The translations under genes were made by a program, and so were the position numbers. Of a stretch of DNA of 64,000 nt, positions 3,706 to 22,471 are shown one piece after another. The notes below the pieces were generated by a model that saw only the letters and a list, made by a program, of their open reading frames with translations, had not been told where the DNA came from and made no database searches. Numbering within the stretch: the first letter of the stretch is position 1; each line of letters opens with the position of its first letter. This stretch comes from an uncultured delta proteobacterium (GTDB taxonomy: Bacteria > Desulfobacterota > Binatia > UBA9968): assembly GCA_963727625.1 (NCBI GenBank), contig CAVSHR010000004.1, positions 1,184,001 through 1,248,000 of the forward strand, written 5' to 3'.

Positions 3706-3739
3706 CGCTCAAGATTACGAAAACCTCTGGCGCCGATTT

Positions 3740-3934: not shown

Positions 3935-3982
3935 AAAATCAATCACCCCCGATCCAACCAGATCGTTTTACATCCGCTGATG

Positions 3983-4010: not shown

Positions 4011-4150
4011 GTAAATCGCTTGAAAAATGAACACTTTGGAGGCACTTGACGGCTTGCTAAGCAGATTCTTCGCGAGCGGCGAAAGGGCTTCGACACCGGC
4101 GGCACACAAACGACTGAGAAAATTTTGAATTATGCGCGACGGCGGTCCCG

Positions 4151-4912
4151 CTAACGCTTTGGACTCCTTGCGCTCGGTAAATTTGGCCTGAAGCGGAGCT
4201 TGTGCAATTTTTCCGGGAAGTCGGAAATTAATCCTTGCACGCCGAGCGCAACAAAAGCTTCCATCTCGCGCACTTCGTTCACCGTCCAGACATGAACGTC
4301 CAAACCTTCTTCCCAGGCCTGCGTGAGAAAATTTCGCGTCGCCAGGGCCTTTTGAACGTGAATGGATTTCGCTTCCAGCCGTCGCGCCGCCGCAAATGGA
4401 TCTGCTGTGCTCCGCGAACCGCAAAGGATAGCCAGTGTCGCCTCCGGCGCCAGTTCCCGAACCCGGGCCAAACAACGATAGTCGAAAGATGACAGGATCG
4501 TGCGGTCCAAGTAGTCGTAGCGACTTAATATAAACAAGATTTTTATTTCGATGCCCGGTGACGCCGCTGGGTAGGATTTAATTTCCAAGCATAAATCGAC
4601 GCGACCGGCGAAGATCTCCAGCGCCTCCTCCAGCGTGAGGATGCGTTCTCCTTTGAAAGATTTTTTTCGCCATTGGCCGATATCGAGCGCCTTGAGCTGG
4701 TCGAGCCTTTTGCTCTTTAATGCGCCGCGGACGCCCGCCGTTCGCAGCAAGCGTTCGTCGTGAAAAATCACCACATGGCCGTCCTCAGTCAATTGGCAGT
4801 CGAACTCGATCATGTCGACACCCGCTTCGATCGCCTTGACAAAAGCGAGCCGAGTGTTTTCCGGATACTTTCCCGAAGCGCCGCGGTGAGCGATGGTTTT
4901 AATGCCAGGCAT
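4151..4912 (-). CDS. Glycerophosphodiester phosphodiesterase (GDPD)
   Basis: IAHRGASGKYPENT, IEFDCQLTEDG..VIFHD, VHVWTVN, GLISDFP. Confidence 0.93.
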   Translation of the reverse strand: MPGIKTIAHRGASGKYPENTRLAFVKAIEAGVDMIEFDCQLTEDGHVVIFHDERLLRTAGVRGALKSKRLDQLKALDIGQWRKKSFKGERILTLEEALEIFAGRVDLCLEIKSYPAASPGIEIKILFILSRYDYLDRTILSSFDYRCLARVRELAPEATLAILCGSRSTADPFAAARRLEAKSIHVQKALATRNFLTQAWEEGLDVHVWTVNEVREMEAFVALGVQGLISDFPEKLHKLRFRPNLPSARSPKR

Positions 4913-4974
4913 GATTCAGCGAGGGCATGGCGCCGGCGAAGCATTCTCCGCTCGAAAGCCTTTTTTCAGAATTT

Positions 4975-5724
4975 TTATGCGGCATCGTCATCGGCGGCTT
5001 TCAGATATATTAAAAATTCTTTGTTGCCCTTGGGCCCGAGCAGCGGCGATTCGGTGACGCCCAGAACTTGGTAGTGCTGCTCCGCCGCCGCACGTTTGAT
5101 CTCGTCGATCACTCGGGCGTGCTCCTCTGGGACGCGCACCACTCCGCCTTTCCCCACCTTGCCCTTGCCGACCTCAAACTGCGGCTTGATGAGCGCGATC
5201 ACCTCGTGGCGCGCCGTGGCCAGCGCGCGCAACCGGGGCAGGACCAGTTTGAGCGAGATAAACGAGACATCGATTGTTGCAAGATCGGCGGGATAGGGTA
5301 ACGAGCTCGGCTCGAAATAACGAATGTTGGACTTTTCGAATACGACGACGCGCGGATCATTGCGCAGTTTCCAGTCGAGTTGGCCATAACCGACGTCGAC
5401 CGCGAACACTTTGACGGCGCCGTGAGCGAGCAAGCAATCGGTAAAACCGCCGGTGGATGCGCCGATATCGATCGCCGTCTTGCCGCTCAAGTCGATGGCG
5501 AATTCGCCGAGCGCCTTCTCCAACTTGAAACCGCCGCGGCTGACATATCGGGAAGCGGTTTTGAGCCGGACCGGCGCGCTCTGGTCTATTAAGCTGCCGG
5601 CCTTGGTCACCGCTTGATCGTTGACAAGCACTTCGCCCGCCAAGATCCTGCGCCGGCCTTCTTCCCGGCTGTTCACCAGCCGGCGGTCGAGCAGCAATAG
5701 ATCTAAGCGCTGCCTCTTTCCCAT
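4975..5724 (-). CDS. tlyA: TlyA family rRNA 2'-O-methyltransferase
   Basis: S4 domain, YVSRGGFKL, DIGASTGGFTDCLL, DVSFISL, LIKPQFE, GNKEFL. Confidence 0.95.
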   Translation of the reverse strand: MGKRQRLDLLLLDRRLVNSREEGRRRILAGEVLVNDQAVTKAGSLIDQSAPVRLKTASRYVSRGGFKLEKALGEFAIDLSGKTAIDIGASTGGFTDCLLAHGAVKVFAVDVGYGQLDWKLRNDPRVVVFEKSNIRYFEPSSLPYPADLATIDVSFISLKLVLPRLRALATARHEVIALIKPQFEVGKGKVGKGGVVRVPEEHARVIDEIKRAAAEQHYQVLGVTESPLLGPKGNKEFLIYLKAADDDAA

Positions 5725-7631
5725 CCCTCCCTGCCGCGCTTCTTTGCACGCCGGACCATCTGCAACACCGCCTGAGCGATGGCGTCTTTATCGAAACCGC
5801 AAAGTTTCTTGAGCTCATCTTGCGTGCCATGGGGAATAAAACGGTCCGGCACGCCGAGCCGTTTAACTGCAACGCCGCTGAAGCCCTCATCGGCAAGAAA
5901 TTCGATCAAGGCGCTGCCGAAGCCGCCCATGATCACGTGATCTTCGACGGTGATCAACCGCGGCACGCGCGCCAGCAAATCGCGAAACAAATCCCTATCC
6001 AGTGGCTTGACGAAGCGGGTGTTGACCACTGCGGCGTCGATGCCCAGCGGCGCGAGATCGTCGGCGGCTTTCACGGCCGGCATGACCGTATCGCCGATGG
6101 CCGCAATCACAATATCCTTGCCGTCGCGCAATAGCTCGGCTTTACCGATCTCAAGGTTTTTCATTTCCGGGTCCATGTTGACGCCCCAGCCTTCGCCGCG
6201 CGGGTAGCGTAAAGAGATCGGACCGGAATGATCGATGGCGGTCTTGAGCATATGCTGCAGTTCGTTTTCATCCTTTGGCGCCATGATGACGATGTTAGGC
6301 ATCGACCGCATGTAGGCGAAGTCGAAGACGCCATGGTGCGTCGGCCCGTCGGCGCCCACCAGCCCGCCGCGGTCCAGGGCGAAGACCACATGCAGATTCT
6401 GCAGGCAGACATCGTGCAGGATCTCGTCGTAGCCGCGCTGGAGGAATGTCGAATAGATCGCAACGACGGGAATGCATCCCTCGGTGGCCATGCCGGCGGC
6501 AAAGGTCACGGCGTGCTGTTCGGCAATGCCGACGTCATAGGTCCGCGCCGGAAACTCGCGCGCCAGCTTGTCGATGCCGGTGCCGCTGCCCATCGCCGCG
6601 GTGATGCCGACCACCTTGGGATTTTCATTGGCAAGGCGGAGCAAAGACCGGCCAAACGCTTCTGTGTAGGTAGGGATCGGCCCTTTTTCTTTCTTGGCCT
6701 TGCCGGTGAGCACATGAAACGGCGTCACGCCGTGAAATTTAATCGGATCCTGTTCCGCCGGCGCGTAACCCTTGCCTTTTTTCGTCAACACATGGACCAG
6801 CGTCGGACCGTCGATCTTTTTGACGTTCTCCAGCGTCGCGATCATCTCACTCAAGTTATGACCGTTGATCGGCCCGACGTATTGAAACCCCAAACTTTCG
6901 AACAGAAATCCCGGGGTCACTAAACTTAGAAAAGAATCGCGCATTTTGCGCGCCAGATGCTTGAGGTTCTCGCCGCTGGGCAGGCTTTTTAACAAACTGG
7001 AAAGGTTTTTCTGCAAGCGCACGCCGAGATCGGTGGTGAATTGTTTGCTCAAAAACGACGACACCGCGCCGACTCGGGGGTCGATAAAATGCTCGTTATC
7101 GTTTAGTACCACGATCAAATCGCGGTCAAGATGGCCGGCCGAGTTCAAGCCCTCGTAGGTCAAACCCGCGCTCAAGCCGCCGTCGCTGATGACCGCGACA
7201 ACCTTACGATTCGAACCTTCGAGAACATTGGCTTCGACCATTCCGAGCGCAGCCGAGATCGAGGTGCCGGCATGACCGGCGCCGAACACATCGTATTCGC
7301 TCTCTTCGCGGCTCAAAAACCCGCTCAAGCCGCCGAACTGGCGGATCGTCGCCAGGCGATCGCGACGGCCGCAGATTAATTTATGGGCGTAGGCCTGGTG
7401 CCCGGTGTCCCATACAATGCGATCTTCGGGCGTATTGAAAACGTAGTGCAGCGCCAATGTCAGCTCCACCGCGCCGAGCGTCGAAGCGAAATGACCGCCG
7501 ACCTCCGACACCACGGAAATGACTTCTTCGCGGATTTCCACGGCGAGCTGATTCAATTCGTCCACCGACAAACGCCGGATATCGCGCGGATATTCAACTC
7601 CATCCAACAAGCGAGTCATACCTTTGTTCAT
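5703..7631 (-). CDS. dxs: 1-deoxy-D-xylulose-5-phosphate synthase
   Basis: GGHFASTLGAVELT, HQAYAHK, GHAGTSIS, DVGIAEQHAV, IYSTFLQR, DGPTHHG. Confidence 0.98.
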   Translation of the reverse strand: MNKGMTRLLDGVEYPRDIRRLSVDELNQLAVEIREEVISVVSEVGGHFASTLGAVELTLALHYVFNTPEDRIVWDTGHQAYAHKLICGRRDRLATIRQFGGLSGFLSREESEYDVFGAGHAGTSISAALGMVEANVLEGSNRKVVAVISDGGLSAGLTYEGLNSAGHLDRDLIVVLNDNEHFIDPRVGAVSSFLSKQFTTDLGVRLQKNLSSLLKSLPSGENLKHLARKMRDSFLSLVTPGFLFESLGFQYVGPINGHNLSEMIATLENVKKIDGPTLVHVLTKKGKGYAPAEQDPIKFHGVTPFHVLTGKAKKEKGPIPTYTEAFGRSLLRLANENPKVVGITAAMGSGTGIDKLAREFPARTYDVGIAEQHAVTFAAGMATEGCIPVVAIYSTFLQRGYDEILHDVCLQNLHVVFALDRGGLVGADGPTHHGVFDFAYMRSMPNIVIMAPKDENELQHMLKTAIDHSGPISLRYPRGEGWGVNMDPEMKNLEIGKAELLRDGKDIVIAAIGDTVMPAVKAADDLAPLGIDAAVVNTRFVKPLDRDLFRDLLARVPRLITVEDHVIMGGFGSALIEFLADEGFSGVAVKRLGVPDRFIPHGTQDELKKLCGFDKDAIAQAVLQMVRRAKKRGREGWERGSA

Positions 7632-7646: not shown

Positions 7647-8573
7647 TTAAGCATTTTTGTGAAGCGCCCGGACGACCACATGCCGCGCGATGGCTGCGAG
7701 CGGCCGCGCGCGCGCGCCAAAGGAGTCGAGCTCTTGCAGGGCCAGTTGCAGCAGCTCTCCGAGGCGCTCGCGCGCCTGCGCGATGCCGAGGATGAGCGGA
7801 TAGGTCGCTTTTTTTTGTTCATTGTGTCCGCTCTCACCCTTTTCGCCCGCCGCAGTTTCACCCTGCGCATCTAAAATATCGTCTGCAATCTGGAAAGCCA
7901 ACCCTAAATATTCGCCGAAGCGCGTGATCTTGGCCAAGTCATCGCCCGCCGCCGACCCTAGCCGGGCACCGATCCGGATCGAAGCCAAAATCAACGCGCC
8001 GGTCTTGCGCACATGGATCGCTTCGACCGTTGCCAGGTTCGCTTCTTTCTCTTCCGCTTCCAGATCAAGGGCCTGGCCGCCCACTAACCCCAGAGTTCCA
8101 GCCGCGTGGGATAACTCGTGGACCAGTTGCAACGCTAAAGCCGGGGCAATCCCGCGTGTCGCATCAGCGTCGGACATCAAGTGAAATGCTTCGGTCAGCA
8201 AACCGTCACCGGCCAGCAGCGCCATGCCTTCGCCGAAAACTTTATGGTTCGCCGGTTCGCCGCGACGTAAATCGTCGTTATCGAGCGCCGGCAGATCATC
8301 GTGAATCAAAGAGTAGGCGTGGATCATTTCCACCGCGCAGGCAAAGGGCAACAAACGATCCTGCGGCGCGCTGAATTGTTCTCCAGCCGCAAGAGTCAGA
8401 ATCGGCCGGATCCGTTTGCCGCCGGGAAACACGCCGTAACGCATGGCACGAAAAATCGTTTGCGCGTCACTCGGATATTTGCTCAGGTAACTTTCGAGGG
8501 CGCGGTCGATGATCGATGTTTGCTTCTCCAGGTAATCGTCCAGGTCGAATTTGCCTGCGGCATTGGAATTCAT
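7647..8573 (-). CDS. ispA: Farnesyl diphosphate synthase (polyprenyl synthetase)
   Basis: GGKRIRP, SLIHDDLPALDNDDLRRG, KTGAL, FQIADDILD; immediately upstream of dxs. Confidence 0.93.
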   Translation of the reverse strand: MNSNAAGKFDLDDYLEKQTSIIDRALESYLSKYPSDAQTIFRAMRYGVFPGGKRIRPILTLAAGEQFSAPQDRLLPFACAVEMIHAYSLIHDDLPALDNDDLRRGEPANHKVFGEGMALLAGDGLLTEAFHLMSDADATRGIAPALALQLVHELSHAAGTLGLVGGQALDLEAEEKEANLATVEAIHVRKTGALILASIRIGARLGSAAGDDLAKITRFGEYLGLAFQIADDILDAQGETAAGEKGESGHNEQKKATYPLILGIAQARERLGELLQLALQELDSFGARARPLAAIARHVVVRALHKNA

Positions 8574-8648
8574 CGAAATGGCCAAGAAAATATTTCCCCG
8601 AGTTCAGTTTATCACTTCTCTGCCCAACCCTTCAAATTCCGCCCGCGC

Positions 8649-9515: not shown

Positions 9516-10472
9516 CTAACCGTTTATGTTGGAAGCCTTCCAGATCGCGCGCAACGGCGCGGGCGACCAGGGTTGGACAAGCCGCGCCGGCAGCGAGCGA
9601 ATCAAACCGAGAATGCCGACGAGCACGACGCGAAGCTTGCGCGCGCCGGTCACATAGGTGCGCTCGTCCCAAGCATGGGCGCCCTTGCGCAGCAGCAAGG
9701 CGCCGATCTCGGAGTAGACGTTGCGCGCTGCCGCCACCGCGCAGGCGGAGCGAAACGAAAGATGCCACAATCCCGCATCACCGGATCGGTAGTAGCGCTC
9801 GGCTTCGCGCAACAGGCGCTGGGTTAAGAGAGCCAATTTTTCTCGATTGGCGGGAGCGGCGATTTCATCCGGCTTGATCTCGGCCTCGTCGAGCCAGCTG
9901 AGCGGCAGATAAATCCGCCCCAGAGCGGCATCTTCGATGATGTCGCGGGCGATGTTGGTGAGCTGCATGGCAATACCGAGATCCGCTGCATGCTTGAGCG
10001 CGCGCTCGTCGCGGAGTCCCATCACATGGGCCATCATCAAGCCGACCGTACCGGCGACACGGTAGCAATAGAGCAACAGCTCTTTGAGCGTCGTGTAATG
10101 AGTGCCGCGCACATCCATCGCCATCCCTTCGATGAGCTCCAAAGCATAGTGGGAAGGAATACCGTAGCGATGGACTATATATTGTAGGGCGACGAAAACC
10201 GGCTGGCGCTGCGGCGTGAAGGAAAAAGCCGCGGCGGTGTTTTCTTTAAGCGCTTTGAGCCGCGTGGCAAGCTCAGCTGGGTCGGTGCCGTTGCCGACTT
10301 GATCCACCTGGTCATCGCAGTAGCGGCACCAGCCGTACAAAAAAAACGCCGCGTCACGGGTGTCCGGATCGAACAACCGCGCCGCCAACGAGAAGCTCTT
10401 CGAGCCCTTTTGAATCATCCAGCGGCATTCATCCAATGCCCCTCTGACCTGCTCCGGCATCGCTTCACGCAT
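9516..10472 (-). CDS. crtB: Phytoene synthase
   Basis: GSKSFSLAARLF, WCRYCDDQVD, YCYRVAGTVGLM, MQLTNIARDIIEDA..GRIYLP. Confidence 0.96.
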   Translation of the reverse strand: MREAMPEQVRGALDECRWMIQKGSKSFSLAARLFDPDTRDAAFFLYGWCRYCDDQVDQVGNGTDPAELATRLKALKENTAAAFSFTPQRQPVFVALQYIVHRYGIPSHYALELIEGMAMDVRGTHYTTLKELLLYCYRVAGTVGLMMAHVMGLRDERALKHAADLGIAMQLTNIARDIIEDAALGRIYLPLSWLDEAEIKPDEIAAPANREKLALLTQRLLREAERYYRSGDAGLWHLSFRSACAVAAARNVYSEIGALLLRKGAHAWDERTYVTGARKLRVVLVGILGLIRSLPARLVQPWSPAPLRAIWKASNING

Positions 10473-11997
10473 AGGACAACCTCGCCGCGCCCGCGTTCTC
10501 CCGAGCCAGCGCCGCCTTGTAATCTTCGGTGATCACTCCGGCCGTCGCCTTAGCCGAGTTCACCACGCCCGGGATGCCGGCGCCGGGGTGCGTGCCCGCG
10601 CCGACGAAGTAAAGCCCGTTAATGTCTTTGTCACGGTTATGCACCCGGAAGTAAGCGCTCTGGGTCAAACGCGGCTCGAGCGAAAACGCCGAACCCAAAT
10701 GGGAATTGAGCTCGACTTTGAAATCCTCGGGAGTAAAGATTCTTTGCGTAACGATTTGGCCGCGCAGCTCCGGCATGTAGTTCCGCTCGAGATAGTCGAG
10801 AATGCGCTCGGCATAATCCGGCCCGGCGGTTTTCCAGTCGATATCGAGCTTGCCCAGGTGCGGCACCGGCGAAAGCACGTAGAATGCTTCGCAGCCGGGC
10901 GGCGCCAAGGACGGATCCGATCGGGTCGGCGCGTGCAGATAGAGTGAAAAATCGTCCGACAATCGGCCGCGGGCAAAGATATCCTTTAACAGCTCGCGGT
11001 AGCGCGGTCCGAAGATGATGTTGTGATGCAGCAGGTTCGGATAGCGCCGCCGCGTGCCGAAGTAGATCAGGAACAGCGACATGCTGTAGGCCGAGCGGGA
11101 CAGGCGCTTGCGCATGCGCTCGGCGCGCCGCTCGCGGCGTAACAGGGCGTCGTAGGTGTGGAACACGTCGGCGTTGCTCGCGACCAGGTCGAACTCCTCT
11201 CTCTGGCCGCTCTTGCTGATCACCGCCTGCACCTGACCGGCCTTGGTAACGATCTCGCCGATCTCCGCGTTCAGACGCAACTCGCCGCCTAGGTCGGTGA
11301 AGAGCTTGACCAGCGCTTGGACCAAAGCCGCAGTCCCGCCCTTCGGAAAAAACACACCCCACTTGCGCTCGAGGCAGTGAATCAGAGTGTAAATCGAGGT
11401 CGTGGTAAACGGATTGCCGCCCACCAGCAGGGAGTGAAAGCTGAAGAGCTGGCGCAAATGCGGGTCGCGAATATGCTTGGCGACCATGCTGTAGACGGAG
11501 CGATAGGCCTCCAACCGAACTAACTGCGGCGCCACCGCGACCATGCTCGCCCAGCTCAGAAACGGCACATGCGCGAGTTTTTCATAGCCCTCGCGGAAAA
11601 CCTCTTCCGAGTATTTGAGAAACTTTTTGTAGCCGGCCAGATCCTCCGGCGATTTTTTTGCGATCTGCGCTTCGAGCAGCGCCGCGTCATCGGAATAGTC
11701 GAATCGGTAGCCATCCTGCCAAAATAAACGATAGAAAGGATCCACCGCCAGCAACTCGACGTAATCGTCCATCGACTTGCCCGCCAAGGTGAACAGCTCT
11801 CGCAGACATTGCGGCGCGGTGATCACCGTCGGCCCGGCGTCGAAGCTAAAGCCGTTGTCGCGGTAGACATAGGCCCTGCCGCCGGCCAGATCGCGTTTCT
11901 CGAATATGACCGTGCGGAAGCCGGCGGCCTGCAGGCGAATGGCCAACGCCAGCCCGCCGAAACCGCTGCCGATCACCGCGGCGCGCAGCTTATCCAT
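10465..11997 (-). CDS. crtI: Phytoene desaturase (CrtI type)
   Basis: VIGSGFGGLALAIRLQAAG, FDAGPTVIT, SLYLHAP, YFVGAGTHPGAGIPGV; start trimmed to MDKLRAAVIG. Confidence 0.97.
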   Translation of the reverse strand: MDKLRAAVIGSGFGGLALAIRLQAAGFRTVIFEKRDLAGGRAYVYRDNGFSFDAGPTVITAPQCLRELFTLAGKSMDDYVELLAVDPFYRLFWQDGYRFDYSDDAALLEAQIAKKSPEDLAGYKKFLKYSEEVFREGYEKLAHVPFLSWASMVAVAPQLVRLEAYRSVYSMVAKHIRDPHLRQLFSFHSLLVGGNPFTTTSIYTLIHCLERKWGVFFPKGGTAALVQALVKLFTDLGGELRLNAEIGEIVTKAGQVQAVISKSGQREEFDLVASNADVFHTYDALLRRERRAERMRKRLSRSAYSMSLFLIYFGTRRRYPNLLHHNIIFGPRYRELLKDIFARGRLSDDFSLYLHAPTRSDPSLAPPGCEAFYVLSPVPHLGKLDIDWKTAGPDYAERILDYLERNYMPELRGQIVTQRIFTPEDFKVELNSHLGSAFSLEPRLTQSAYFRVHNRDKDINGLYFVGAGTHPGAGIPGVVNSAKATAGVITEDYKAALARENAGAARLSYA

Positions 11998-13117
11998 AGG
12001 CCAGCGCAATCTCTTCGCCCAAAGCTCGCAGTTCCTCGAAAGCGCGCTTGGACCAGGATACTCCGGTTTCATCGAGGCGAGCTTCGAGCAATTCGAACGC
12101 ATGGTCGAGACAGCTCTGAGCGCAATTGCGCGTCACAGGAACCAATTTATTCGCCCCGATCCACGATTCCAAATGCGCTGCGTCGGGCAGCTCGCTGACC
12201 GCGGCGAGGAATTCTTCGTAGTCACGCGCCGTGCTCTGATTTGCGGCGCAGGCCCAGACCCAGGAGGGCCGCGACAGGATCAAATCCTCATAGCGCTTGG
12301 AGGGCTCGCATTTACCGATCGTGTTGCCGAGATCATCGAACATTTGCAACGCGACGCCCAGATCCCGGCCGAAATCGTCGACGATTGAGATCAGCTTTTC
12401 CGAGCCGCCGGCGAGCACCGCGCCAAGCATGGCGGCAAACCCCATCAGCGCGCCGGTTTTAAGCCGCATCGAGGCGGTGCAAACTTCGGCCACCTCGCCA
12501 CGCGGCAGCCTGTGGACCTGAGCGCCCAAGTCGATCGCTTGGCCGAAATGGGCGCGCAACAAGGTGCGGTGGCAACGATCATAAATGAGCAGCATTTGAT
12601 CCTTTGCAACGCCCATCTCTTTAAGCAGTTCAAAGGGCCAGAAATAGAGCCAATTGCCGGCATTGAGAGCGATCGGCAGGCCATGGCGGACATGGAGCGC
12701 CGGACGCCCCCGGCGCATCGGACTGCCGTCTTCGATATCGTCGACGATGAGCGAGCCGGCATGGATGAATTCCACGGCTTCAGCGGCAATTCGACAGCGT
12801 TTCGCCGCGACTATGGAATGGGCCGCCTCGGAGTTAATCAAGCGGTAGCTGAAGCCCAGCAGTTGCCCGCGAATACGCTTGCCGCGGTTTGCGGTCAAGT
12901 CAACGATCGGATCCAACAACGCGCGACTCAACACACCGGACACCGCGCCCACATCATCGAGTCCCAGCAATTCAGCCAGCTGCGCGCCGTCGGGGAGGGT
13001 CCCGTCGGCAATTTCTTTGAGGCTGCCCGGGCGATCGTATTTCTCGGGACGCTCCTCGAAGCGCCGTCTAAACGGCGCCGGCGCCGACCGGCTCAGATCC
13101 AGAATTGAATTCTTCAT
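11990..13117 (-). CDS. crtE: Polyprenyl synthetase, probable GGPP synthase (CrtE-like)
   Basis: GKRIRG, IHAGSLIVDDIEDGSPMRRGRPALH, GQAID, KTGALM; within the crt operon. Confidence 0.8.
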   Translation of the reverse strand: MKNSILDLSRSAPAPFRRRFEERPEKYDRPGSLKEIADGTLPDGAQLAELLGLDDVGAVSGVLSRALLDPIVDLTANRGKRIRGQLLGFSYRLINSEAAHSIVAAKRCRIAAEAVEFIHAGSLIVDDIEDGSPMRRGRPALHVRHGLPIALNAGNWLYFWPFELLKEMGVAKDQMLLIYDRCHRTLLRAHFGQAIDLGAQVHRLPRGEVAEVCTASMRLKTGALMGFAAMLGAVLAGGSEKLISIVDDFGRDLGVALQMFDDLGNTIGKCEPSKRYEDLILSRPSWVWACAANQSTARDYEEFLAAVSELPDAAHLESWIGANKLVPVTRNCAQSCLDHAFELLEARLDETGVSWSKRAFEELRALGEEIALAYG

Positions 13118-14088
13118 TCATTCCTCCCCAAAATTTGAAACGACTCGCTATCACCGGCCAAGAGATTTTCCGGAGTCACGCTCAAGGCGTTAGAAAGCCG
13201 GATGACGATATCCATGGATACGTTTTGCTTACCGCCTTCGACCGCGACGATACAGACTCGCGTCACGCGCGTCACTTTGGCTAGCTGCTCTTGGGTCCAA
13301 GCCTTCTTTAATCGCAAATCCCTCACCTGCCGCCCCAGCGCCAGCAGGTATTCTTTCAAGATCACCTTGGGACGGTTGGCACGCAAATTTTTAAGCGCCA
13401 AATCGATGCCGTCGTCGAGATCGCGCGCGATCTGGCAACGTCCGGTCAAAACGTTTCGCAAGGCATCGTTCGCAAGCGCCTGTCCGCCCAGGATGATGCG
13501 CGGCGCAGGCGCAAGGGCCACTGATTGTCCGATAAAATCGCGCGCGTGCTCGACGCCTTCGGGCAACGTCGCGGACAGCGCGACCAACTGCGGCCGGCGC
13601 TTCTGGGCTAGTTCGACGAGGGCTTCAGCGGGCACATCGGGACCGAGAAAGTCGGCGGTCCAGCCGCGGCTCCGACAGAGATCGGCAAACATCCGCGCGC
13701 CGATGTAGTGACGCTCGCCCTGAACGCAGGCAACCAGCACGCGATAGGACGAGCGCCGTTCGCGCCAAGCGAACATGGAGCTCAAACGATCCAGATGGCT
13801 CAGAACAATCTGAGTCGCCAAATGCTCCTCAGCGACACCGATATCGCCGCGACACCACAGGTTGCCAAGAGTAACCAGCGACGGCGCGATCACCTGACTG
13901 TAGATTTTGTCAAGCGAAAATCGCTGGGACAAAACATCATCGAGAACCCGGTGCGACGCTTCAGCGTCCCCCGCCATGAGCGCTGCGCTATATGCGCCGC
14001 GGCTTTGATCGAAGTGGTTACTATGATCGGCTTGGTTTTTTATCGGACGGTAATACGTCATCTTAATAAATCTTTGTATAGCGACCAT
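13114..14088 (-). CDS. Cobalamin-binding (CarH-type) photosensor domain fused to C-terminal XRE/Cro HTH; probable light-responsive regulator
   Basis: W-CRGDIGVAE-EH (Wx9EH), GERHYIG (ExHxxG), VALSAT, IILGGQA; C-terminal LGRQVRDLRLKKAWTQEQLAK...VEGGKQNVSMDIVIRLSNAL. Start at 14088 follows GGGGA; a later start is possible. Confidence 0.88.
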   Translation of the reverse strand: MVAIQRFIKMTYYRPIKNQADHSNHFDQSRGAYSAALMAGDAEASHRVLDDVLSQRFSLDKIYSQVIAPSLVTLGNLWCRGDIGVAEEHLATQIVLSHLDRLSSMFAWRERRSSYRVLVACVQGERHYIGARMFADLCRSRGWTADFLGPDVPAEALVELAQKRRPQLVALSATLPEGVEHARDFIGQSVALAPAPRIILGGQALANDALRNVLTGRCQIARDLDDGIDLALKNLRANRPKVILKEYLLALGRQVRDLRLKKAWTQEQLAKVTRVTRVCIVAVEGGKQNVSMDIVIRLSNALSVTPENLLAGDSESFQILGRNE

Positions 14089-14105
14089 TTCCCCCGATCG
14101 CTCCG

Positions 14106-15009
14106 TTACAGCCGCAGGGATCGCAACGCCGCCGCAATCGTAGGGTATTTGAAGCCATAGCCTAACTTCAACGCCGCTTCGGGCATTGCTTTCTGACCGG
14201 CTAATAACATATCGGCCATCTCGCCGGTGAGCAGCGTCAAGGCGGAAGGCGGCACGGACACCCACGACGGCCGGTTCAAAACAGCGCCCAGGGCCTTGGA
14301 AAATTCCGCCATGGTCACCGGATTGGGCGCGGTGCCGTTGAAAGCGCCCCGCGCGTTATCGTTTTCCATAAGAAACATCAGCAAGCCGATCTCGTCTTCA
14401 ATATGAATCCACGGCATCCACTGGTGGCCGAGCCCAGCGGCCCGCCCATAAACATCTTGAACGGCGGCACCATCTTTTTGAGCGCGCCCTGGCCGCGGTC
14501 GAGCACGATGCCGGTGCGCAACAGCACGACGCGAACCCCATGGGCTTCGGCCTTTTTCGCTTCGGATTCCCAGTCGATACAGAGCTGCGCCAAAAAATCA
14601 CTCCCGGGCGCGCTGTTCTCGGTAATCGCCTCGTCCCCATGCGGGCCGTAATAGCCCACCGCCGAGGCGCTCAGCAAAAGTTCGGCTTGTTTTTCGCCTT
14701 GGCCATGGCGTTGACCAGGGCGCGCGTCGATTCGATCCGGCTCGAGCGGATTAGCGTTTTCTGCGCCGCGCTCCAGCGCTTGCCGCCGATCGGTTCGCCG
14801 GCCAAATTGATCACACCGTCGGCGCTGTCAATCGCCTTTTCCCGTTCGCCGGTTGCACCGGGAGTCCACGCGAACCACTCCTTCTTGGTAACACCTAGTT
14901 CTGCCGGCGGTCGCCGGCTAAGCAGCGCCAGCGTGTGGAGTTGATTCCATAGCCGGTCAGCCAAAATCGAGCCGACAAACCCCGTAGCACCCGCGATAAC
15001 GACCTTCAT
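14106..15009 (-). pseudogene. TIGR01777 family NAD-dependent epimerase, split by two frameshifts
   Basis: Three consecutive ORF fragments (GATGFVG..INLAGEPI / SASAVGYYG..LRTGIVL..GGPLGS / MPWIH..FNGTAPNPV..GQK) join with +1 nt at about 14681 and about 14428. Confidence 0.85.
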
Positions 15010-15052
15010 CGAGCTTGCCTGAAAATTTCCTTGTGCTCCTGAAATGACATTC

Positions 15053-15076
15053 TGAAGTCAAATATATTTGACTTCA
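15053..15076. promoter_or_regulatory. Perfect 24-bp palindrome containing back-to-back -35-like hexamers (divergent promoter/operator)
   Basis: TGAAGTCAAATATATTTGACTTCA equals its reverse complement; TTGACT on both strands; lies in the 100-bp divergent intergenic region. Confidence 0.7.
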
Positions 15077-15109
15077 ATAGCACTAATGTCTTAATTAGTA
15101 AACATAGCG

Positions 15110-16069
15110 ATGGAACAAAATTTACTCCAACGCCCGCGCCTGGGCATCAGCGCTTGTTTGCTCGGGCAAACCGTGCGCTACGACGGGGGCCACAAGCATG
15201 ACGCGTTTTTGACCGATACCTTCGGCCGCTTCGTCGATTGGGTGCCGGTTTGTCCGGAGCTGGAAGTAGGCATGGGCGTGCCGCGCGAAAGCGTGCGGCT
15301 GATCGGTTCGTTGAATCAGCCGCGCATGATCGCCGAGCGTTCCGGCAAGGATTGGACCGACGCGATGACTGCCTTCGCCGCCAAACGGAGCGACTCTCTC
15401 GCCGCCCTCGATCTCTCCGGCTACGTGTTTAAAAAGGATTCGCCGAGCTGCGGCATGGAACGGGTCCGGGTGTACGAAGCAAAAACCCAGCCGACGCGCC
15501 GCGGCCGCGGTTTGTTTGCCGCCGCGTTGATGAAAAAGCTGCCGCTCCTTCCCGTCGAAGAAGAGGGGCGCTTGAACGATCCGGCGCTGCGCGAAAACTT
15601 CATCGAGCGGGTCTTCGCTTACCACCGTTGGCGCGCCGCAGAAGTCAAGAAGTCACGGGGCAGCCTGGTCGCCTTTCACACCCGGCATAAATATTTATTG
15701 CTGGCGCACAGCGAGCGTCACTATCGCAATCTCGGCCGAGTGGTCGCCGGCGCCAAGGAAAAGCCGCTGCGCGAAGTTTATGATGAATACGGCCTCGGCT
15801 TCATGGAAGGGCTGGCCGTCCAAGCCAGCGCCAAAAAACACGCCAACGTGCTCGACCACATGATGGGGTATTTTTCCAAGCAGCTCGACCCCGCCGAGCG
15901 CCAGGAGTTGGTCGAATTGATCGCCGACTACCGGCGCGAATTAGTTCCGCTCATCGTGCCGGTGACCCTGGTCCGCCACTACGTCAAGAAATACGCTGTG
16001 GCGTACCTCAACGACCAGGTTTATTTGGCGCCGAGCCCGAAGGAGCTGATGCTGCGCAATCACGTTTAG
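15110..16069 (+). CDS. DUF523-DUF1722 fusion (TudS/RudS-like thiouridine desulfidase, YbgA family)
   Basis: GISACLLGQTVRYDGGHK, PVCPELEVGMGVPRE, KKDSPSCG (three Fe-S cysteines), EEEGRLND, FHTRHKYLLLAHS, ELMLRNHV end. Confidence 0.92.
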   Translation: MEQNLLQRPRLGISACLLGQTVRYDGGHKHDAFLTDTFGRFVDWVPVCPELEVGMGVPRESVRLIGSLNQPRMIAERSGKDWTDAMTAFAAKRSDSLAALDLSGYVFKKDSPSCGMERVRVYEAKTQPTRRGRGLFAAALMKKLPLLPVEEEGRLNDPALRENFIERVFAYHRWRAAEVKKSRGSLVAFHTRHKYLLLAHSERHYRNLGRVVAGAKEKPLREVYDEYGLGFMEGLAVQASAKKHANVLDHMMGYFSKQLDPAERQELVELIADYRRELVPLIVPVTLVRHYVKKYAVAYLNDQVYLAPSPKELMLRNHV

Positions 16070-16091: not shown

Positions 16092-16580
16092 ATGAAGACT
16101 TTTAATTTTGCCAGCGAAACTTGGTTACCTGCGCCGCGCCATCGAGTGTTTGAGTTTTTCGCCGACCCGGGCAACTTAGAACGGCTGACGCCGCCCTGGC
16201 TACACTTTGAGATCATCACGCCGCCGGACACCGCCATCACGCAAGGCAGCTTGCTCGACTACCGCCTGCGCCTGCGCGGCATCCCGCTGCGCTGGCAGAG
16301 TGAAATTTCCCTCTGGGAGCCGCCGCGCCGTTTCGTCGACCGGCAGACCAAAGGTCCCTACTCGCTCTGGGTGCACGAACACACCTTCGTCGACCATGAC
16401 GGCGGGACCATGGTCGGCGATCGCGTCGAATACGCCGTGCCCGGCGGCCGGCTCGTGCAAACATTTATTGTCGCTCCCGACCTCGAACGGATTTTTCAAT
16501 TCCGCCGCCGAGTCCTCGAAGAGATCTTCGCCGCCCGGGGGGCGCCTGCCCGCAGCATCGACCGGCGTTTAGTCCAGTGA
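16092..16580 (+). CDS. SRPBCC (START-like) family protein
   Basis: VFEFFADPGNLERLTPP, FVDRQTKGPYSLWVHEHTF, IFQFRR. Confidence 0.88.
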   Translation: MKTFNFASETWLPAPRHRVFEFFADPGNLERLTPPWLHFEIITPPDTAITQGSLLDYRLRLRGIPLRWQSEISLWEPPRRFVDRQTKGPYSLWVHEHTFVDHDGGTMVGDRVEYAVPGGRLVQTFIVAPDLERIFQFRRRVLEEIFAARGAPARSIDRRLVQ

Positions 16581-17966
16581 GCGGCCCTTTTCCAGCGCCG
16601 CGATGCGCTCGATGTAAGCCTTCGAATTGAACTTGCGCGAGGTGCTCTCGTAGGACATGTAGCGGATCTTGCCGTACACCGGCCGCTCCGGTCCCCAGGC
16701 GCGGTCATGCTTGCCGACGATCGCCCAGGCGATGCCGGCGTAGCCGTTGGGATCGCGGCCGTCGAGCTCGTAGCGGTCATTGAGCCAAACCGCGATCCGG
16801 TAGGCCGCCTGCGGCGACTCGGTCCATTCGAGAATTTTTTTCGCCCAGTACATGCGCAGGTAGCCGTGCATCCAGCCCGTCAGCACCATTTGCTTTTGTG
16901 CCGCGTTCCACAGCGGATCGTGGGTTTCAGCGTTTTCCAACTGCCGCTCCGTGTAAACACAGCGCCGACGATCCTGGGCGTGTTTGCGGTGGGTGAGTTC
17001 GGCCCAGGGCTCGCAGGCTTCGAAGTTCTCATAGTCGCGGTTGAAGCGCACGAAATTAATCGCCAGCTCCCGGCGCACGATCAGTTCCTCTAAGTAGGCT
17101 TTGCGGTCTTCCGCCGGCGCGCCAGCCTGTTGCACGGCAAGCGCCACGGTGTGCGCACCGATCTGGCCGAAGTGGAGATAAGCTGACAATTGGCTCGTGC
17201 CATCGATATCGGGTTGGTTGCGCAGCGTCGCATAGCCTTTGAGCCGGTGGCGCAGAAATCTTTCGAGGCAACACCGCGCTTCAGCGCTGCCGCCCGAGAA
17301 GTGTCGCGACGGCACGACCGAGCAGTCGATGGGAAATTCATCGAGCAGCGCCAAGTCCGAGGATAATGAAGCGACCTGCGCGGGCATGCGCCAGGCGAAC
17401 TTCGCCGCCGGGTTTCCTACCGGTTGCAAAAATTGCGGCAAGAGAGCTTGAATTTTCGGTCGGATCGTTCGCGCCGCGTAATGCTCTCTGGCAAGCAGCT
17501 TGGACGGCACGATCACGTCGGTGTCCACCGTCCAGAGCGGCAAATTGATTTGCTGCGCGATCTTGGCCTTGGTCAGCTCCGCCTGCTTCATCGGATTCTC
17601 GTCGCCGATCACCAAACAAGGCCGCACCTCGGAACAAAATCGCAAAAGCCCGTGTCGCGGATAACGGCGGAGAACCCATCCCACACCTCTTTTTTTTAGC
17701 TCCGCAGCAATGTCTCTCAGCCCTTCAACGAGAAATTGATAGTGCCGGAGATTCCCGTGATGAGAACGAGGAACGAGTTGAAAGAACACCACAACCGGCT
17801 TGCCCAGACGGTTGCCGGCTTCGACCGCGGCCGTGAGCGCGGCGTTATCCGCCGCTCTTTGAGCGCGCTGCATCCAGTAAACCACGCATCGCCCGTCGGG
17901 GTCCGGCGTGCCGGACCGCCGTACGGTCAGCCGTGGATCATCGCGCAAACAATCCAGGGCGGTCAT
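16569..17966 (-). CDS. phrB: Class II CPD DNA photolyase
   Basis: VVYWMQRAQRAADN, SQLSAYLHFGQI, THDPLWNAAQ, MHGYLRMYWAKKILEW, DGRDPNGY, ERPVYGKIRYMS; ATG overlaps the upstream stop (ATGA). Confidence 0.95.
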   Translation of the reverse strand: MTALDCLRDDPRLTVRRSGTPDPDGRCVVYWMQRAQRAADNAALTAAVEAGNRLGKPVVVFFQLVPRSHHGNLRHYQFLVEGLRDIAAELKKRGVGWVLRRYPRHGLLRFCSEVRPCLVIGDENPMKQAELTKAKIAQQINLPLWTVDTDVIVPSKLLAREHYAARTIRPKIQALLPQFLQPVGNPAAKFAWRMPAQVASLSSDLALLDEFPIDCSVVPSRHFSGGSAEARCCLERFLRHRLKGYATLRNQPDIDGTSQLSAYLHFGQIGAHTVALAVQQAGAPAEDRKAYLEELIVRRELAINFVRFNRDYENFEACEPWAELTHRKHAQDRRRCVYTERQLENAETHDPLWNAAQKQMVLTGWMHGYLRMYWAKKILEWTESPQAAYRIAVWLNDRYELDGRDPNGYAGIAWAIVGKHDRAWGPERPVYGKIRYMSYESTSRKFNSKAYIERIAALEKGRSLD

Positions 17967-19414
17967 TGGGCCACGGCCCTCTCGTCGCGGCATCTCGCCG
18001 CGATCGCTTGCAACATTTTCGCGAACATCAACTTGTGGACCGGGTAAAGCAGGTACCAATACAATAAACCGGCGACGCCGATCGGATCGAAGATCGCGGT
18101 TTGGCGGATCACCGATCCGCTCCCTCGATCTTCCACTTCGAACTCGAGCCAAGCCCGCCCCGGCAGCTTCATTTCGGCGGCGAGACGAAGTCGTTGACCG
18201 TCCTGGAAAGCCTCAACCCGCCAGAAATCGAGGGTATCACCGACCTGAAGCATTTCCGGATCGCGCCGGCCCCGTCGAACCCCAACACCGCCCATCAAGA
18301 GATCGACAAAGCCCCGCACTTGCCACAACCAATCGCCGTAATACCAGCCGGTCTTCCCACCGATGCGGCGGATCGGCAGAAAGGCGCCTTTCGCAGAAAC
18401 ATTGACTGAGACTTCTCGATAATCAACGATCCGGTTGCCAAACCGCACCCCACCCCAATTGGACTGCTCTCCCCGCGACGATAAAGCATCGGACCACTTG
18501 GTGGCGGCAAATTCACGATCTTCATTGACGATGGCGCGGGCAATCATTTCCCGAACTCCTTTCGGCCGGACCGAAAATAGTTTGAGAGCATTAGGATCGC
18601 GCACCACCGTCGGGTTTCTGATGCTGTCAATTAACTTGCGGCCGACGCGCGCGTAGACCGGCGTTACCAATCCCAGCCAGAGACTCGATAGGCGCGGCGT
18701 CAACACCGGAACCGAGATCAGGAAACGGCGCAAATTGCGCTGCCGGGCATACTCGCGCATGATATGCTCGTAGGAAACCTGATCGGCGCCGCCAATCTCG
18801 AGGATGCGATTGCCTGTGAGAGGAAGATCCAAGGCTTGGACGAGGTATTCAACCAGGTCTTCAATCCCTATGGGTTGCGCCGCAATCGATACCCAAGCCG
18901 GGCAGATCATGACCGGCAGGCGCTCGACCAGCGCCCGAATAATCTCAAACGAAAGACTTCCCGAGCCGATGACGATCGAAGCGCGAAACTCGATGACCTC
19001 GAGGCCAAGCGTACGGAGCGCTTCGCCGACTTCCTGACGACTTCGCAAATGCGGCGACAACGCGCCCTCGCCTAAGCCACCAAGGTAAATGATGCGCCGA
19101 ATATTGGCCGCATGAGCCGCTTTTGCAAAATTGCTTGCGGCTTGACGATCTTTTTCCTCAAACGACCCGGCGGTGCCCATGGAGTGCACCAGATAATAAG
19201 CGGTGTGCACTCCCGCCGATGCGGCGGCGAGCGATGAGGTATCGAAACAGTCGCCAGAAACCACTTGGGTATTTTTGCCAATCCGTCCTCGCAGCGCTTC
19301 CGGTCGCCGTGCCATGCAGCGCAACCGATAGCCGCCCGCCTCCAAGGCTTGCAGCAACCTTCCGCCGACATATCCGGTGCCGCCGGTTAACAAGATGAGA
19401 TTCTGACGATCCAT
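17963..19414 (-). CDS. SDR-family oxidoreductase with C-terminal DUF2867 (YbjT-like)
   Basis: LTGGTGYVGGRL, YYLVHSM, SPHLRSRQEVG, GDTLDFWRVE, AEMKLPGRAWLEF. Confidence 0.9.
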   Translation of the reverse strand: MDRQNLILLTGGTGYVGGRLLQALEAGGYRLRCMARRPEALRGRIGKNTQVVSGDCFDTSSLAAASAGVHTAYYLVHSMGTAGSFEEKDRQAASNFAKAAHAANIRRIIYLGGLGEGALSPHLRSRQEVGEALRTLGLEVIEFRASIVIGSGSLSFEIIRALVERLPVMICPAWVSIAAQPIGIEDLVEYLVQALDLPLTGNRILEIGGADQVSYEHIMREYARQRNLRRFLISVPVLTPRLSSLWLGLVTPVYARVGRKLIDSIRNPTVVRDPNALKLFSVRPKGVREMIARAIVNEDREFAATKWSDALSSRGEQSNWGGVRFGNRIVDYREVSVNVSAKGAFLPIRRIGGKTGWYYGDWLWQVRGFVDLLMGGVGVRRGRRDPEMLQVGDTLDFWRVEAFQDGQRLRLAAEMKLPGRAWLEFEVEDRGSGSVIRQTAIFDPIGVAGLLYWYLLYPVHKLMFAKMLQAIAARCRDERAVAQ

Positions 19415-20517: not shown

Positions 20518-21321
20518 ATGCAAAATCGCGCTGCTGGCCTCGTCGAAGTCTATCACTCTCAGCCGGTCAATATTCGCTCGCTCTTGCTCGCGGCGCTGGC
20601 GCTCTATTGCGGCTTGTATGCGAGGGTCACCGCTGCCCAGGAAGAAGCGCCGCTCTCGCCCGGCGCTTATAAATTGGAAATGATCATGGCCTCGACCACG
20701 CGGGTGCCTTTTTTTGGCAGCTCGAAATCCGCCTCCAAGTCCGTATCCCTGGTGGAGATCCACCGCGACGGCAACAGTCTTAGTCAAAGCCACAAGGTCT
20801 GCGACTTTCGCGTCCTTGAAGATTCCAAGCTGATCAAGATGATTTTTCCGGAGAAATTTGTCGCCGCTCTAGCCAATCACAGCTATCCCATTCAACTTGA
20901 AAAAGGCGCCCAAGGATGGCATTACCGCGCCGATCTCGGCATCGAACGCATCGGTTATCGAAATAGCGGCGCGGAAGACAAGCTGCCAGCCAAAGTCGAC
21001 GATCCGGCGGTTTTCGATTGGGACGGCGACGGCCATCCCGGCGCCACGCTGAAAATCTCCGTGCCCTTGTTGCCGGATGGCGAACTCTATGTCGTCCAGC
21101 GAGGCCAATCGATCCTCACCGGCCGACTGGTTCAGCCGGGCAGGATCGAAGGTCATATCGACGTACGCACCTTCGACCAGCGGGTTATCGACGCCTGGCC
21201 CAGTTTCCTCGCCACATCGCCGGAAATTGTGCCGGATCCAAAGGAAAGCCGCTTTATCCTGACCGCGATTCCCGCCGGCACGAGCTGCGCCACGCTGCGC
21301 GCCGCGGCGCAAAAACCGTGA
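20518..21321 (+). CDS. Hypothetical secreted protein with DxDxDG motif
   Basis: Signal-peptide-like LLLAALALYCGLYARVTAA; VFDWDGDGHPGATL; beta-rich; start uncertain. Confidence 0.65.
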   Translation: MQNRAAGLVEVYHSQPVNIRSLLLAALALYCGLYARVTAAQEEAPLSPGAYKLEMIMASTTRVPFFGSSKSASKSVSLVEIHRDGNSLSQSHKVCDFRVLEDSKLIKMIFPEKFVAALANHSYPIQLEKGAQGWHYRADLGIERIGYRNSGAEDKLPAKVDDPAVFDWDGDGHPGATLKISVPLLPDGELYVVQRGQSILTGRLVQPGRIEGHIDVRTFDQRVIDAWPSFLATSPEIVPDPKESRFILTAIPAGTSCATLRAAAQKP

Positions 21322-21355
21322 TTCAACTGGTCGGCGTCCGACTGAGGTTAAAAAA

Positions 21356-22471
21356 TTGTTCGGCGCGAAAAGACACAGAAGATTAAGGCTCATTCAAGCC
21401 GGCGCGTCGCCGAGCGCGGACCGCATCAGCATTATCTTGCCGGTGCTAAACGAAGCGCCGCGCATCGACGCCTGTCTCGACGCGCTGATTGCGCAGAGTG
21501 AAGAAGTCGACGAGATTCTGGTCGTCGACGGCGGTTCGACGGACGGCACTCGGTCGATCGTCGCGCGCTACCGGGACAGAGACGGCCGGGTGCGTTTACT
21601 CGACGCCAGCCCCATCGACGTGCATTGGACCGGCAAGGTTTGGGGGCTCAATTTCGGCCTGCAGCGCTCCGCGCCGAGCTGCCAATGGATTCTCTGCATC
21701 GATGCGGACGTGCGCGTTGCGCCGCTGCTCTCGCGCTCGCTCCTGGCCCATGCCAATCGAATGGGCGTATCGACGTTCTCCATCGCAGCCCAACAAAAGC
21801 TCTCGGGCAAGCTCGAAGCTTTAATCCACCCGCCGATGCTGACCACGCTGATTTACCGCTTCGGCTCGCCCGGTAACGCTACGCGCAGCGTTCACAAGGT
21901 CAAGGCCAACGGCCAGTGCTTTTTCAGCCGGCGCGATATTTTGTTGCGCACCGAGGCTTTCAATGCCGCGCGCGCCTCGCTCTGTGAAGATATCACCATC
22001 GTGCGTCGTCTCGCCGAATGCGGCGAGTGGGTCGGCTTTTACGAGGCCGAGCCGGGTTTGATCGATGTGCGCATGTACGGTAGCTGTCGCGAGACCTGGG
22101 CCAACTGGCCGCGCTCCCTGCCCATGCGCGATCAATATTTCGGCTGGCGCGAAGCCATGGGGTTCCCGGGCATCCTGCTGGTTCAGGCGTTGCCGCTGCC
22201 GGCATTCCTGCTCGGCATTGGGTTCGGCGCGCCGCTGTGGTTTCTCCTGCTCGTCGGACTCTTGTTGGCCATTCGCATCGGCGTTTTGATCGGTGTCGCC
22301 CGCGCCTACCCGGCGCGGCCGTGGACGTTTTGGCTATCGCCGCTTTGCGATCTGCCCGTGGTTTTGCGGATCATCCAGTTCGCCCTTCGCCGCCGCCATA
22401 GCTGGCGCGGCCGCACCTATGTGCGCCAACCCGGTGGCCGGTTTGAGCCGGCGAGCAATCCCGACTCTTAG
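21356..22471 (+). CDS. Family 2 glycosyltransferase, CruG-like (carotenoid glycosyltransferase)
   Basis: IILPVLNEA, VVDGGSTDGT, WTGKVWGL, IDADV, ANGQC, CEDIT, WPRSL, C-terminal TM segments and WRGRTY; start uncertain. Confidence 0.82.
   Translation: MFGAKRHRRLRLIQAGASPSADRISIILPVLNEAPRIDACLDALIAQSEEVDEILVVDGGSTDGTRSIVARYRDRDGRVRLLDASPIDVHWTGKVWGLNFGLQRSAPSCQWILCIDADVRVAPLLSRSLLAHANRMGVSTFSIAAQQKLSGKLEALIHPPMLTTLIYRFGSPGNATRSVHKVKANGQCFFSRRDILLRTEAFNAARASLCEDITIVRRLAECGEWVGFYEAEPGLIDVRMYGSCRETWANWPRSLPMRDQYFGWREAMGFPGILLVQALPLPAFLLGIGFGAPLWFLLLVGLLLAIRIGVLIGVARAYPARPWTFWLSPLCDLPVVLRIIQFALRRRHSWRGRTYVRQPGGRFEPASNPDS

Follow-up and report, generated by a model that had tools for sequence, protein, structure and literature searches.

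A putative vitamin B12-dependent light regulator with a C-terminal XRE domain in the carotenoid operon of an uncultured Binatia bacterium

A stretch of 64,000 nucleotides from an uncultured delta proteobacterium (GTDB lineage Bacteria; Desulfobacterota; Binatia; UBA9968), comprising positions 1,184,001 to 1,248,000 of contig CAVSHR010000004.1 in assembly GCA_963727625.1 and referred to here as the window, was analysed for a gene encoding a putative vitamin B12 (cobalamin) sensor fused to a helix-turn-helix (HTH) domain of the XRE (Cro/C1) type. This gene, whose product is called the regulator below, is located in a minus-strand carotenoid operon (Table 1), in which the genes for a YfcH-like epimerase, the regulator, a crtE-like polyprenyl synthase, crtI, crtB, Caroten_synth, a second polyprenyl synthase and dxs follow each other with gaps of no more than 63 nt. 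The original prediction, made from the sequence alone, had placed the regulator at the head of the operon. The annotation moves it to second place, with the YfcH-like gene lying between the promoter region and the regulator. The predicted ATGA-type coupling to crtE was found at 13114-13117, where the stop codon TGA of the regulator (13116-13114) overlaps the ATG (13117-13115) of the crtE-like gene.

The minus-strand open reading frame (ORF) 13114..14265 contains two in-frame ATG codons, at 14088 and 14061, giving proteins of 324 and 315 amino acids (aa), respectively, the shorter one beginning at M10 of the longer form. ATG 14061 is probably the real start, since the equivalent methionine is the first residue in 27 of 29 aligned homologues. 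In the closest genome relative, locus L008, the first start codon past a stop also corresponds to ATG 14061. Whichever start is used, residues 1-18 are predicted to be disordered in the structural model. All residue numbers refer to the 324-aa translation from ATG 14088. The gene is present as a single copy in its 6.6-Mb genome. To our knowledge, CarH alone among B12-based, light-controlled DNA-binding switches has been characterised in detail. No second CarH-like sensor was found in the 6.6-Mb genome; all five MerR_1 matches in the genome lie within open frames of 96-187 aa, which are too short for a CarH, so that the regulator is the sole candidate B12 photoreceptor-regulator of this genome.

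Table 1. Genes, protein domains and intergenic elements at the regulator locus, in window positions.
Feature	Position	Strand	Basis
B12-sensor/XRE regulator gene	13114..14088	-	ORF, translation, Pfam, homologue starts
B12-binding_2, four-helix-bundle cap (residues 33-101)	13786..13992	-	Pfam 47.9 bits, cut-off 23
B12-binding, Rossmann-type (residues 116-206)	13471..13743	-	Pfam 62 bits, cut-off 32.1
C-terminal XRE (Cro/C1-type) HTH (residues 250-308)	13165..13341	-	HTH_31 38.5 bits (cut-off 27), HTH_3 33.1 bits (cut-off 23)
Candidate operator, perfect 24-bp (12+12) palindrome TGAAGTCAAATA/TATTTGACTTCA	15053..15076	.	Dyad search, conservation
Second conserved block, TGTTta.TAtttAtaACATT (ATGTT-N10-AACAT in several loci)	15086..15105	.	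Alignment, information content
YfcH-like epimerase (Epimerase + DUF1731), first gene of the operon	14106..15009	-	Pfam, synteny
crtE-like polyprenyl synthase, 375 aa	11990..13117	-	Pfam
crtI	10465..12102	-	Pfam
crtB	9516..10472	-	Pfam
Caroten_synth PF04240	8649..9503	-	Pfam
Second polyprenyl synthase, 312 aa, ispA-like	7647..8585	-	Pfam
dxs	5703..7631	-	Pfam
DUF523 (2-thiouracil desulfurase)/DUF1722 protein, divergent	15110-16069	+	Pfam
SRPBCC protein, divergent	16092-16580	+	Pfam
DNA photolyase	16569..18152	-	Pfam
NAD(P)H-binding/DUF2867 protein	17963..19414	-	Pfam

Pfam analysis of the regulator agreed with the expected domain order, in which the XRE HTH is C-terminal and no MerR domain precedes the sensor; zero matches to the MerR family were obtained in the regulator protein. 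The motifs named in the original prediction (Wx9EH, ExHxxG, VALSAT and LGGQA) are all present in the translation. In the cap, the sequence LWCRGDIGVAEEH (about 13822-13860) corresponds to W78-x9-E88-H89, and the same domain holds G75xxW78 and the invariant C79. The B12-binding domain contains GERHYIG at 13699-13719, which provides E125-x-H127-x-x-G130, together with LVALSAT and ILGGQA. The classic B12 motif is complete (E125xH127xxG130-x41-S172xT174-x26-G201G202), and G149xxxP153 is found as well. This motif is defined in the available text of PMC9304148 as D/ExHx2G/P-x41-SxT/V-x22-27-GG, its His being the lower cobalt ligand, and the same text separates CarH from CarA by an intact Wx9EH. The light-response signature GxxW/EH/GxxH/GxxxP, published by Yu et al. 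2024 (PMC11796333, available text), is carried in full by the regulator, between the cap and the Rossmann domain, in the form of GNLW, EEH, GERH and GPDVP. An alignment of 30 family sequences showed W78, C79, E88, H127, G149, P153, S172, T174, G201 and G202 to be invariant, and H89 to be conserved in at least 90% of the sequences.

The best NCBIfam match of the regulator was the CarH equivalog NF052513, with 88.6 bits (4.2e-25) against a cut-off of 400, and this model covers the regulator only at profile positions 85-256 of 274. Models of corrinoid methyltransferase proteins (MtbC, MtgC and MtaC) also remained below cut-off, the best being MtgC with 43.9 bits against 370, and an assignment of the regulator to these proteins was rejected because the scores are far under the cut-offs. 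A B12 or heme sensor of the AerR/PpaA/AppA-SCHIC type was dismissed as well, since AppA_SCHIC reached 18.3 bits against a cut-off of 28.6 and the regulator has an HTH of its own.

An AlphaFold2 model of the regulator was built from the 30-sequence alignment (mean predicted local distance difference test score 80.5). From the N-terminal side it shows a four-helix bundle and a beta/alpha domain of five strands, from which two linker helices (224-237 and 239-261) lead to an XRE domain of five helices. Comparison with the PDB by Foldseek gave exclusively light-sensing cobalamin domains as top matches (photocobilins, the CtMerR domain and TtCarH), and the cobalamin domain of TtCarH was matched with a template modelling score of 0.82-0.84 (on target) and a root-mean-square deviation of about 3 A. 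In the PDB sequence search, CtMerR (8jbs, 1.6e-19), a photocobilin (8j2w, 4.5e-19) and TtCarH (5c8a, 1.5e-17) were retrieved, and in pairwise alignment the WC...EH of the regulator aligns with the WH...EH of TtCarH. The nearest solved HTH is that of the controller protein C.AhdI (PDB 1Y7Y; 8e-6). The assignment of a CarH-type sensor module is thus backed by NCBIfam, by the PDB sequence matches and by the fold.

The HTH is near-invariant over a long stretch in the 30-sequence alignment (WTQEQLA...VTRVCIVAVEGGKQNVSMDI, with WTQE.L and AVEGGKQN), and the recognition-helix region is invariant across the aligned family members. In a search of 5.8 billion proteins, 409 homologous sequences reached E<=1e-3. 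The best 120 of these 409 share 50-95% identity with the regulator, all combine B12-binding_2, B12-binding and HTH_3, and most are 313-315 aa long. Given 409 homologues and the common domain order of the best 120, these sequences place the architecture far past chance.

The sensor part alone (218 aa) was also used as a query against 1.84 billion representatives clustered at 50% identity, which gave 11,427 matches at E<=1e-3; the best 150 were analysed. According to Pfam, the first 80 of these comprise 54 proteins with a C-terminal HTH_3, 23 sensor-only proteins (several of them clearly truncated), two with an unknown N-terminal extension and one histidine kinase. Another 20, picked from the other 70 for odd length or domain position, included histidine kinase, GGDEF, EAL/PAS, HD and SnoaL proteins and one N-terminal HTH_17. 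MerR was found by Pfam in none of the 100 nearest sensor-domain representatives scanned in this way. A local hidden Markov model of the family HTH matched 77 of the best 150 representatives, and Wx9EH is retained in 71 of the 77.

A tree of the sensor region was constructed with FastTree (145 rows, with 144 of the 150 representatives kept after removal of rows with fewer than 150 aligned query positions). On this tree the XRE label needs 7 changes, compared to a mean of 48 after shuffling and with 0 of 500 shuffles as low, where the rows labelled 'other' include truncated proteins that possibly lost an XRE tail. The tree is unrooted and has weak support, with 19 of 142 branches at 95% or above. 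The clustering of the XRE label indicates that the fusion of sensor and XRE is old and mostly inherited, with no recent swap from CarH. The original prediction had gone further and called the protein an independently assembled switch. The clustering of the XRE proteins and the lack of MerR among the 100 nearest representatives speak for this, whereas the unrooted tree leaves such an origin plausible only.

Within the same GTDB genus, 10 of 18 other genomes gave a match, one of them a fragment and one split in two, whereas the 12 genomes surveyed from the order's other families gave none. A sample of the phylum gave matches at E<=1e-20 in five of 200 other genomes, with 30-36% identity over the sensor part only; these five were excluded from the family, as the alignment is confined to the sensor. 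The public records of related loci carry various labels, among them Candidatus Binatia, uncultured delta proteobacterium and Syntrophobacteraceae. Locus L008, with 76% identity and full synteny, is labelled Chloroflexota, while records from the same genus go under Binatia or delta proteobacterium. Naming of the family members is also inconsistent, including 'MerR family ... light-induced transcriptional regulator' and 'methanogenic corrinoid protein MtbC1/DNA-binding XRE', of which 'methanogenic corrinoid protein MtbC1' is a domain-level label.

Synteny and motif counts were obtained by tblastn with the proteins of the window on 20 full-length related loci (L008-L027). Loci L028-L046, consisting of actinobacterial sensor-only matches and two HTH-only matches and not of the whole protein, were excluded from these counts. 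Directly downstream of the regulator, crtE was found in 16 of the 20 loci, the remaining ones being L015 (contig ends), L016, L026 (partial gene) and L027 (30% identity). crtI is present in 13 loci, and three further contigs stop too soon to tell. The epimerase gene lies directly upstream of the regulator in 16 loci, the DUF523/DUF1722 gene is divergent in 15, and a photolyase is located within the locus in eight. Homologues of the regulator are hence closely linked to crt and photolyase (phr) genes. Homologues lacking such a link would have refuted the original prediction, which is not what the loci show. At L027, the most distant locus (2226-6552), the gene adjoins amine oxidase, DUF1365, DUF3833 and SRPBCC-like genes and no crt gene. 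We take this set to be singlet-oxygen and light (photo-oxidative-stress) regulon genes of proteobacteria, and L027 probably represents a different regulon with its own operator.

The photolyase and DUF2867 genes of the window are neighbouring photoprotection genes, and past them genes for a hydrolase, an unknown protein, a GT2 glycosyltransferase and an acyltransferase are located. The last three (20518-23230, plus strand; the unknown protein has 267 aa) accompany the island in L008, L011, L017 and L022-L025, and these three proteins might turn the carotenoid into a glycoside ester. The YfcH-like gene is split here over three frames, with breaks near 14673 and 14418 that each fall at a short single-base run, and it forms an intact 301-aa ORF in L008 and L009; the split stems either from an error in the assembly or from recent decay of the gene to a pseudogene. 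Split matches in other genes also occur in the metagenome-assembled genome loci L018, L022, L023 and L025. The two polyprenyl synthases of the operon are about 33% identical to each other, with dxs next to them. The Binatota genome paper (PMC8262859) mentions carotenoids and, in its available text, no regulator.

A palindromic operator had been predicted at 15010-15110. A perfect 24-bp palindrome was found there, in the 100-bp intergenic region between the divergent starts of the DUF523/DUF1722 and YfcH-like genes, and it is conserved in related loci and regarded as the candidate operator. Its 18-base core has 0.01 expected chance matches in the window, and GTCAAA-N4-TTTGAC and GTCAANTATANNTNAC occur once each in the 6.6-Mb genome, both at the palindrome. 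The equivalent region of 16 related loci gave the conserved core consensus AGTCAAnTATAnTTnACt, with an information content well over that of the flanks. A weight matrix from the conserved sites matched 17 of the 20 loci, exactly once in each and always in the promoter region, with L026 being added in this way; the 314,603 bases scanned on both strands held no other match. The three loci without a site are L013 and L020, whose contigs begin inside or past the epimerase gene, and the distant L027. In the loci that have no epimerase (L015, L017 and L024), the site is situated directly upstream of the regulator gene. The sites of L012, L015, L017 and L024 are strongly dyad-symmetric and score on both strands. 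A function of the palindrome as intrinsic terminator was rejected because of its position, flanked by the starts of two divergent genes, and because of a stem with no more than 3 G-C pairs.

The palindrome overlaps promoter-like hexamers, namely TTGACT on both strands and a central TATATT (TATAnT, -10-like in both directions), and a promoter-like CTGAAA-18-TATATT is found in the region. XRE proteins typically bind dyad operators as dimers, and with this overlap a dimer on the dyad would cover promoter elements of both transcription units. The left half is invariant as AGTCAA, which is TTGACT on the opposite strand. TTGACT and a TGt-TATAAA-like stretch 16-17 nt further on form a near-consensus promoter toward DUF523/DUF1722. 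The right half-site was considered as the -35 element of the operon and discarded, since in L010 it is only 28 nt from the start codon, which makes this impossible there. The centre of the second conserved block lies 31 bp (about three helical turns) from that of the palindrome, and the end of the block is 5 nt away from the DUF523/DUF1722 start codon. The block probably represents either a further binding site or, for the divergent promoter, its -10 and start-site sequence. Should the TTGACT-based promoter be genuine, the position of the block implies a very short leader.

Based on these sequence features, it is likely that the regulator acts as a one-component, adenosylcobalamin (AdoCbl)-dependent dark repressor of the carotenoid operon that is released by light. 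AdoCbl would be bound by the N-terminal CarH-type module, with His127 as the lower cobalt ligand and with the adenosyl group capped by Trp78, Glu88 and His89. In the dark, the protein carrying AdoCbl would oligomerise through the sensor module, and the oligomer would set pairs of C-terminal XRE HTH domains on the palindrome AGTCAAnTATAnTTGACT (15053-15076). This binding would block the regulator's own operon (YfcH-like through dxs) and the divergent DUF523/DUF1722-SRPBCC pair. Light would then cleave the Co-C bond, the oligomer would loosen, the protein would leave the DNA and carotenoid synthesis would be switched on. Being encoded inside its own operon, the regulator would also regulate itself. 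If the genes are regulated as one operon, the light switch would raise the isoprenoid precursor supply in addition.

Several observations weigh against this dark-repressor model, beginning with the operator. The right half of the palindrome is far less conserved than the left half, and no convincing -35/-10 pair for the operon direction was found in the intergenic region. No copy of the motif lies upstream of the photolyase-DUF2867 unit, so that not all of the island could be controlled via the palindrome. Its conservation could partly or wholly reflect a core promoter instead of an operator. The palindrome might accordingly be a shared core promoter only, with the operator elsewhere (e.g. at 15086-15105), or the protein might be a light-dependent activator. 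The invariant AGTCAA half with the near-consensus sigma-70 promoter toward DUF523/DUF1722, the degenerate other half and the conservation of the block at 15086-15105 would agree with this, but a promoter alone needs no dyad symmetry, which here extends without a mismatch over 24 bp and is also strong in L012, L015, L017 and L024. The general preference of XRE dimers for such dyads, with C.AhdI as the nearest solved HTH, also argues for an operator, as does the rule that CarH operators overlap promoter hexamers (PMC9304148, available text). An explanation by the promoter alone or by an activator is thus considered unlikely.

A further point against the dark-repressor model, in its strict CarH form, is position 79. 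Trp131-His132 of TtCarH aligns with Trp78-Cys79 of the regulator (codon of Cys79 at 13852-13854). His132 becomes the upper cobalt ligand after photolysis and is required for disassembly of the TtCarH tetramer (PMC10442372, available text), and given Cys79 the predicted light-state chemistry of the regulator cannot equal that of TtCarH. Among the best 120 homologues, this position is occupied by Cys in 116 and by Arg in one, while among the wider sensor-XRE representatives His is commonest (30 of 72) and Cys is found in five. Validated light sensors without this His exist, CtMerR having Arg and SasPcob having Gln, and Cys79 is therefore no argument against light sensing.

The replacement of the His that drives CarH disassembly would also suit a regulator that works without B12 or is gated differently, as are CarA and class II LitR. 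In such a regulator the sensor would serve as an oligomerisation scaffold only, and de-repression would need another factor, such as singlet oxygen, an antirepressor or oxidation of the Cys79 thiol. An invariant Cys by the cofactor could indeed be a redox sensor, and CarA, a paralogue of CarH, works without B12 (PMC9304148, available text). CarA, however, does not have the Trp of Wx9EH according to the same text, whereas the family keeps this Trp, the Glu-His pair and the cobalt-ligating His, and the retention of these motifs is hard to explain without cofactor binding. A CarS-like antirepressor was not seen, though none was searched for. Taken together, gating of this kind appears very unlikely.

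A more far-reaching version of the dark-repressor model is that the family forms a separate, old class of B12 photoreceptor-repressors, with an XRE domain fused independently of CarH, a dyad operator and a Cys79 thiolate that ligates or reduces cobalt after photolysis of the Co-C bond. This is conceivable and, in our view, rather doubtful. We know of no B12 photoreceptor for which a thiolate-type photocycle has been described; if true, the chemistry of Cys79 would couple light sensing to the thiol redox state or to oxygen.

The last points concern the cofactor supply of the cell. The genome encodes a PduO-type adenosyltransferase (204 bits) and contains two cobalamin riboswitches next to each other, the supply genes and elements being located at C1:26678-27196 and C6:299432-300794; their presence speaks for the dark-repressor model. 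CobD/CbiB and methylmalonyl-CoA mutase were not found in this 98%-complete genome, which counts against an AdoCbl-dependent repressor, and neither was a CobA-type transferase. With PduO present and CobD/CbiB not found, cobalamin is probably imported and then adenosylated. This apparent reliance on imported B12, together with the riboswitches, could point to a sensor of B12 availability that tunes the operon (dxs and the prenyl synthases) to cofactor supply, with light having no physiological role, and the sensor fold is common to non-photoreceptor corrinoid proteins, as seen in the weak MtgC and MtbC matches. Such a function is regarded as highly improbable: the Wx9EH and GxxW/EH/GxxH/GxxxP markers of light-responsive domains (PMC11796333 and PMC9304148, available texts) are complete and invariant or nearly so, the expected targets are carotenoid genes beside a photolyase and not B12-dependent enzymes or transporters, and the corrinoid-protein models score far under their cut-offs.

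CarH is used in optogenetics and in light-responsive materials. A second, widespread design would establish the B12 sensor as a transferable gene-control module, and, if the dark-repressor model is true, the regulator would provide a new green-light switch with a simple, short palindromic operator. The Cys79 family would further be a natural experiment on the role of His132. For Binatia-type uncultured bacteria of soil and sediment, the model predicts that pigment production is induced by light and depends on vitamin B12.

Literature searches gave no paper that describes or tests a regulator made of a B12 sensor and an XRE domain; the nearest mention is that of Yu et al. (FEBS J 2024; PMC11796333), who found cobalamin domains with the light-response signature fused to an HTH on the N- or C-terminal side. 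Those HTH-fusion clusters come from database mining, and the text, legends and one supplement of that paper give no HTH type, operator, context or experiment for them. The sensor-XRE architecture is, accordingly, that of a large family and not a unique invention, and it has already been mentioned in passing.

Among the characterised systems, C.AhdI-type XRE/Cro-C1 repressors share HTH_3/HTH_31 with the regulator. They are small and have no cofactor sensor, whereas in the regulator a 240-residue B12 module has the HTH as its output. The best sequence matches among solved structures, the CtMerR domain (8JBS/8JBT) and the photocobilins SasPcob and AbDPcob (8J2W, 8J2X, 8J2Y), have the same light signature and were validated as light-responsive (PMC11796333, available text). 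CtMerR and SasPcob, like the regulator, have no His after the Trp. CtMerR differs by its MerR head, and the photocobilins have no domain for DNA binding, their partner domain being a biliverdin-binding globin or a diguanylate cyclase.

CarH, or class I LitR (TtCarH, 5C8A/5C8D/5C8E; CarH of Myxococcus xanthus and Bacillus megaterium), resembles the regulator in the four-helix bundle and Rossmann domain, in Wx9EH and in the classic His-on motif. In its predicted function, as a one-component AdoCbl photoreceptor-repressor, the regulator is closest to CarH. Both are encoded in or beside the carotenoid genes expected as their targets, and in both the likely operator overlaps promoter elements. In CarH the DNA-binding part is an N-terminal MerR winged helix, whereas in the regulator it is a C-terminal XRE domain. 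The CarH operator consists of tandem 11-bp direct repeats nnnnTnnACAn (PMC9304148, available text), in contrast to the dyad that is the candidate here, where no dedicated TnnACA scan was run. Where TtCarH has His132, the regulator has Cys79, and a His at this place is found in many, not all, CarH proteins. By its sequence, with no MerR head, a score below the cut-off of the CarH model, no equivalent of His132 and a dyad as candidate operator, the regulator is not a member of the CarH family, with which it shares the sensor module.

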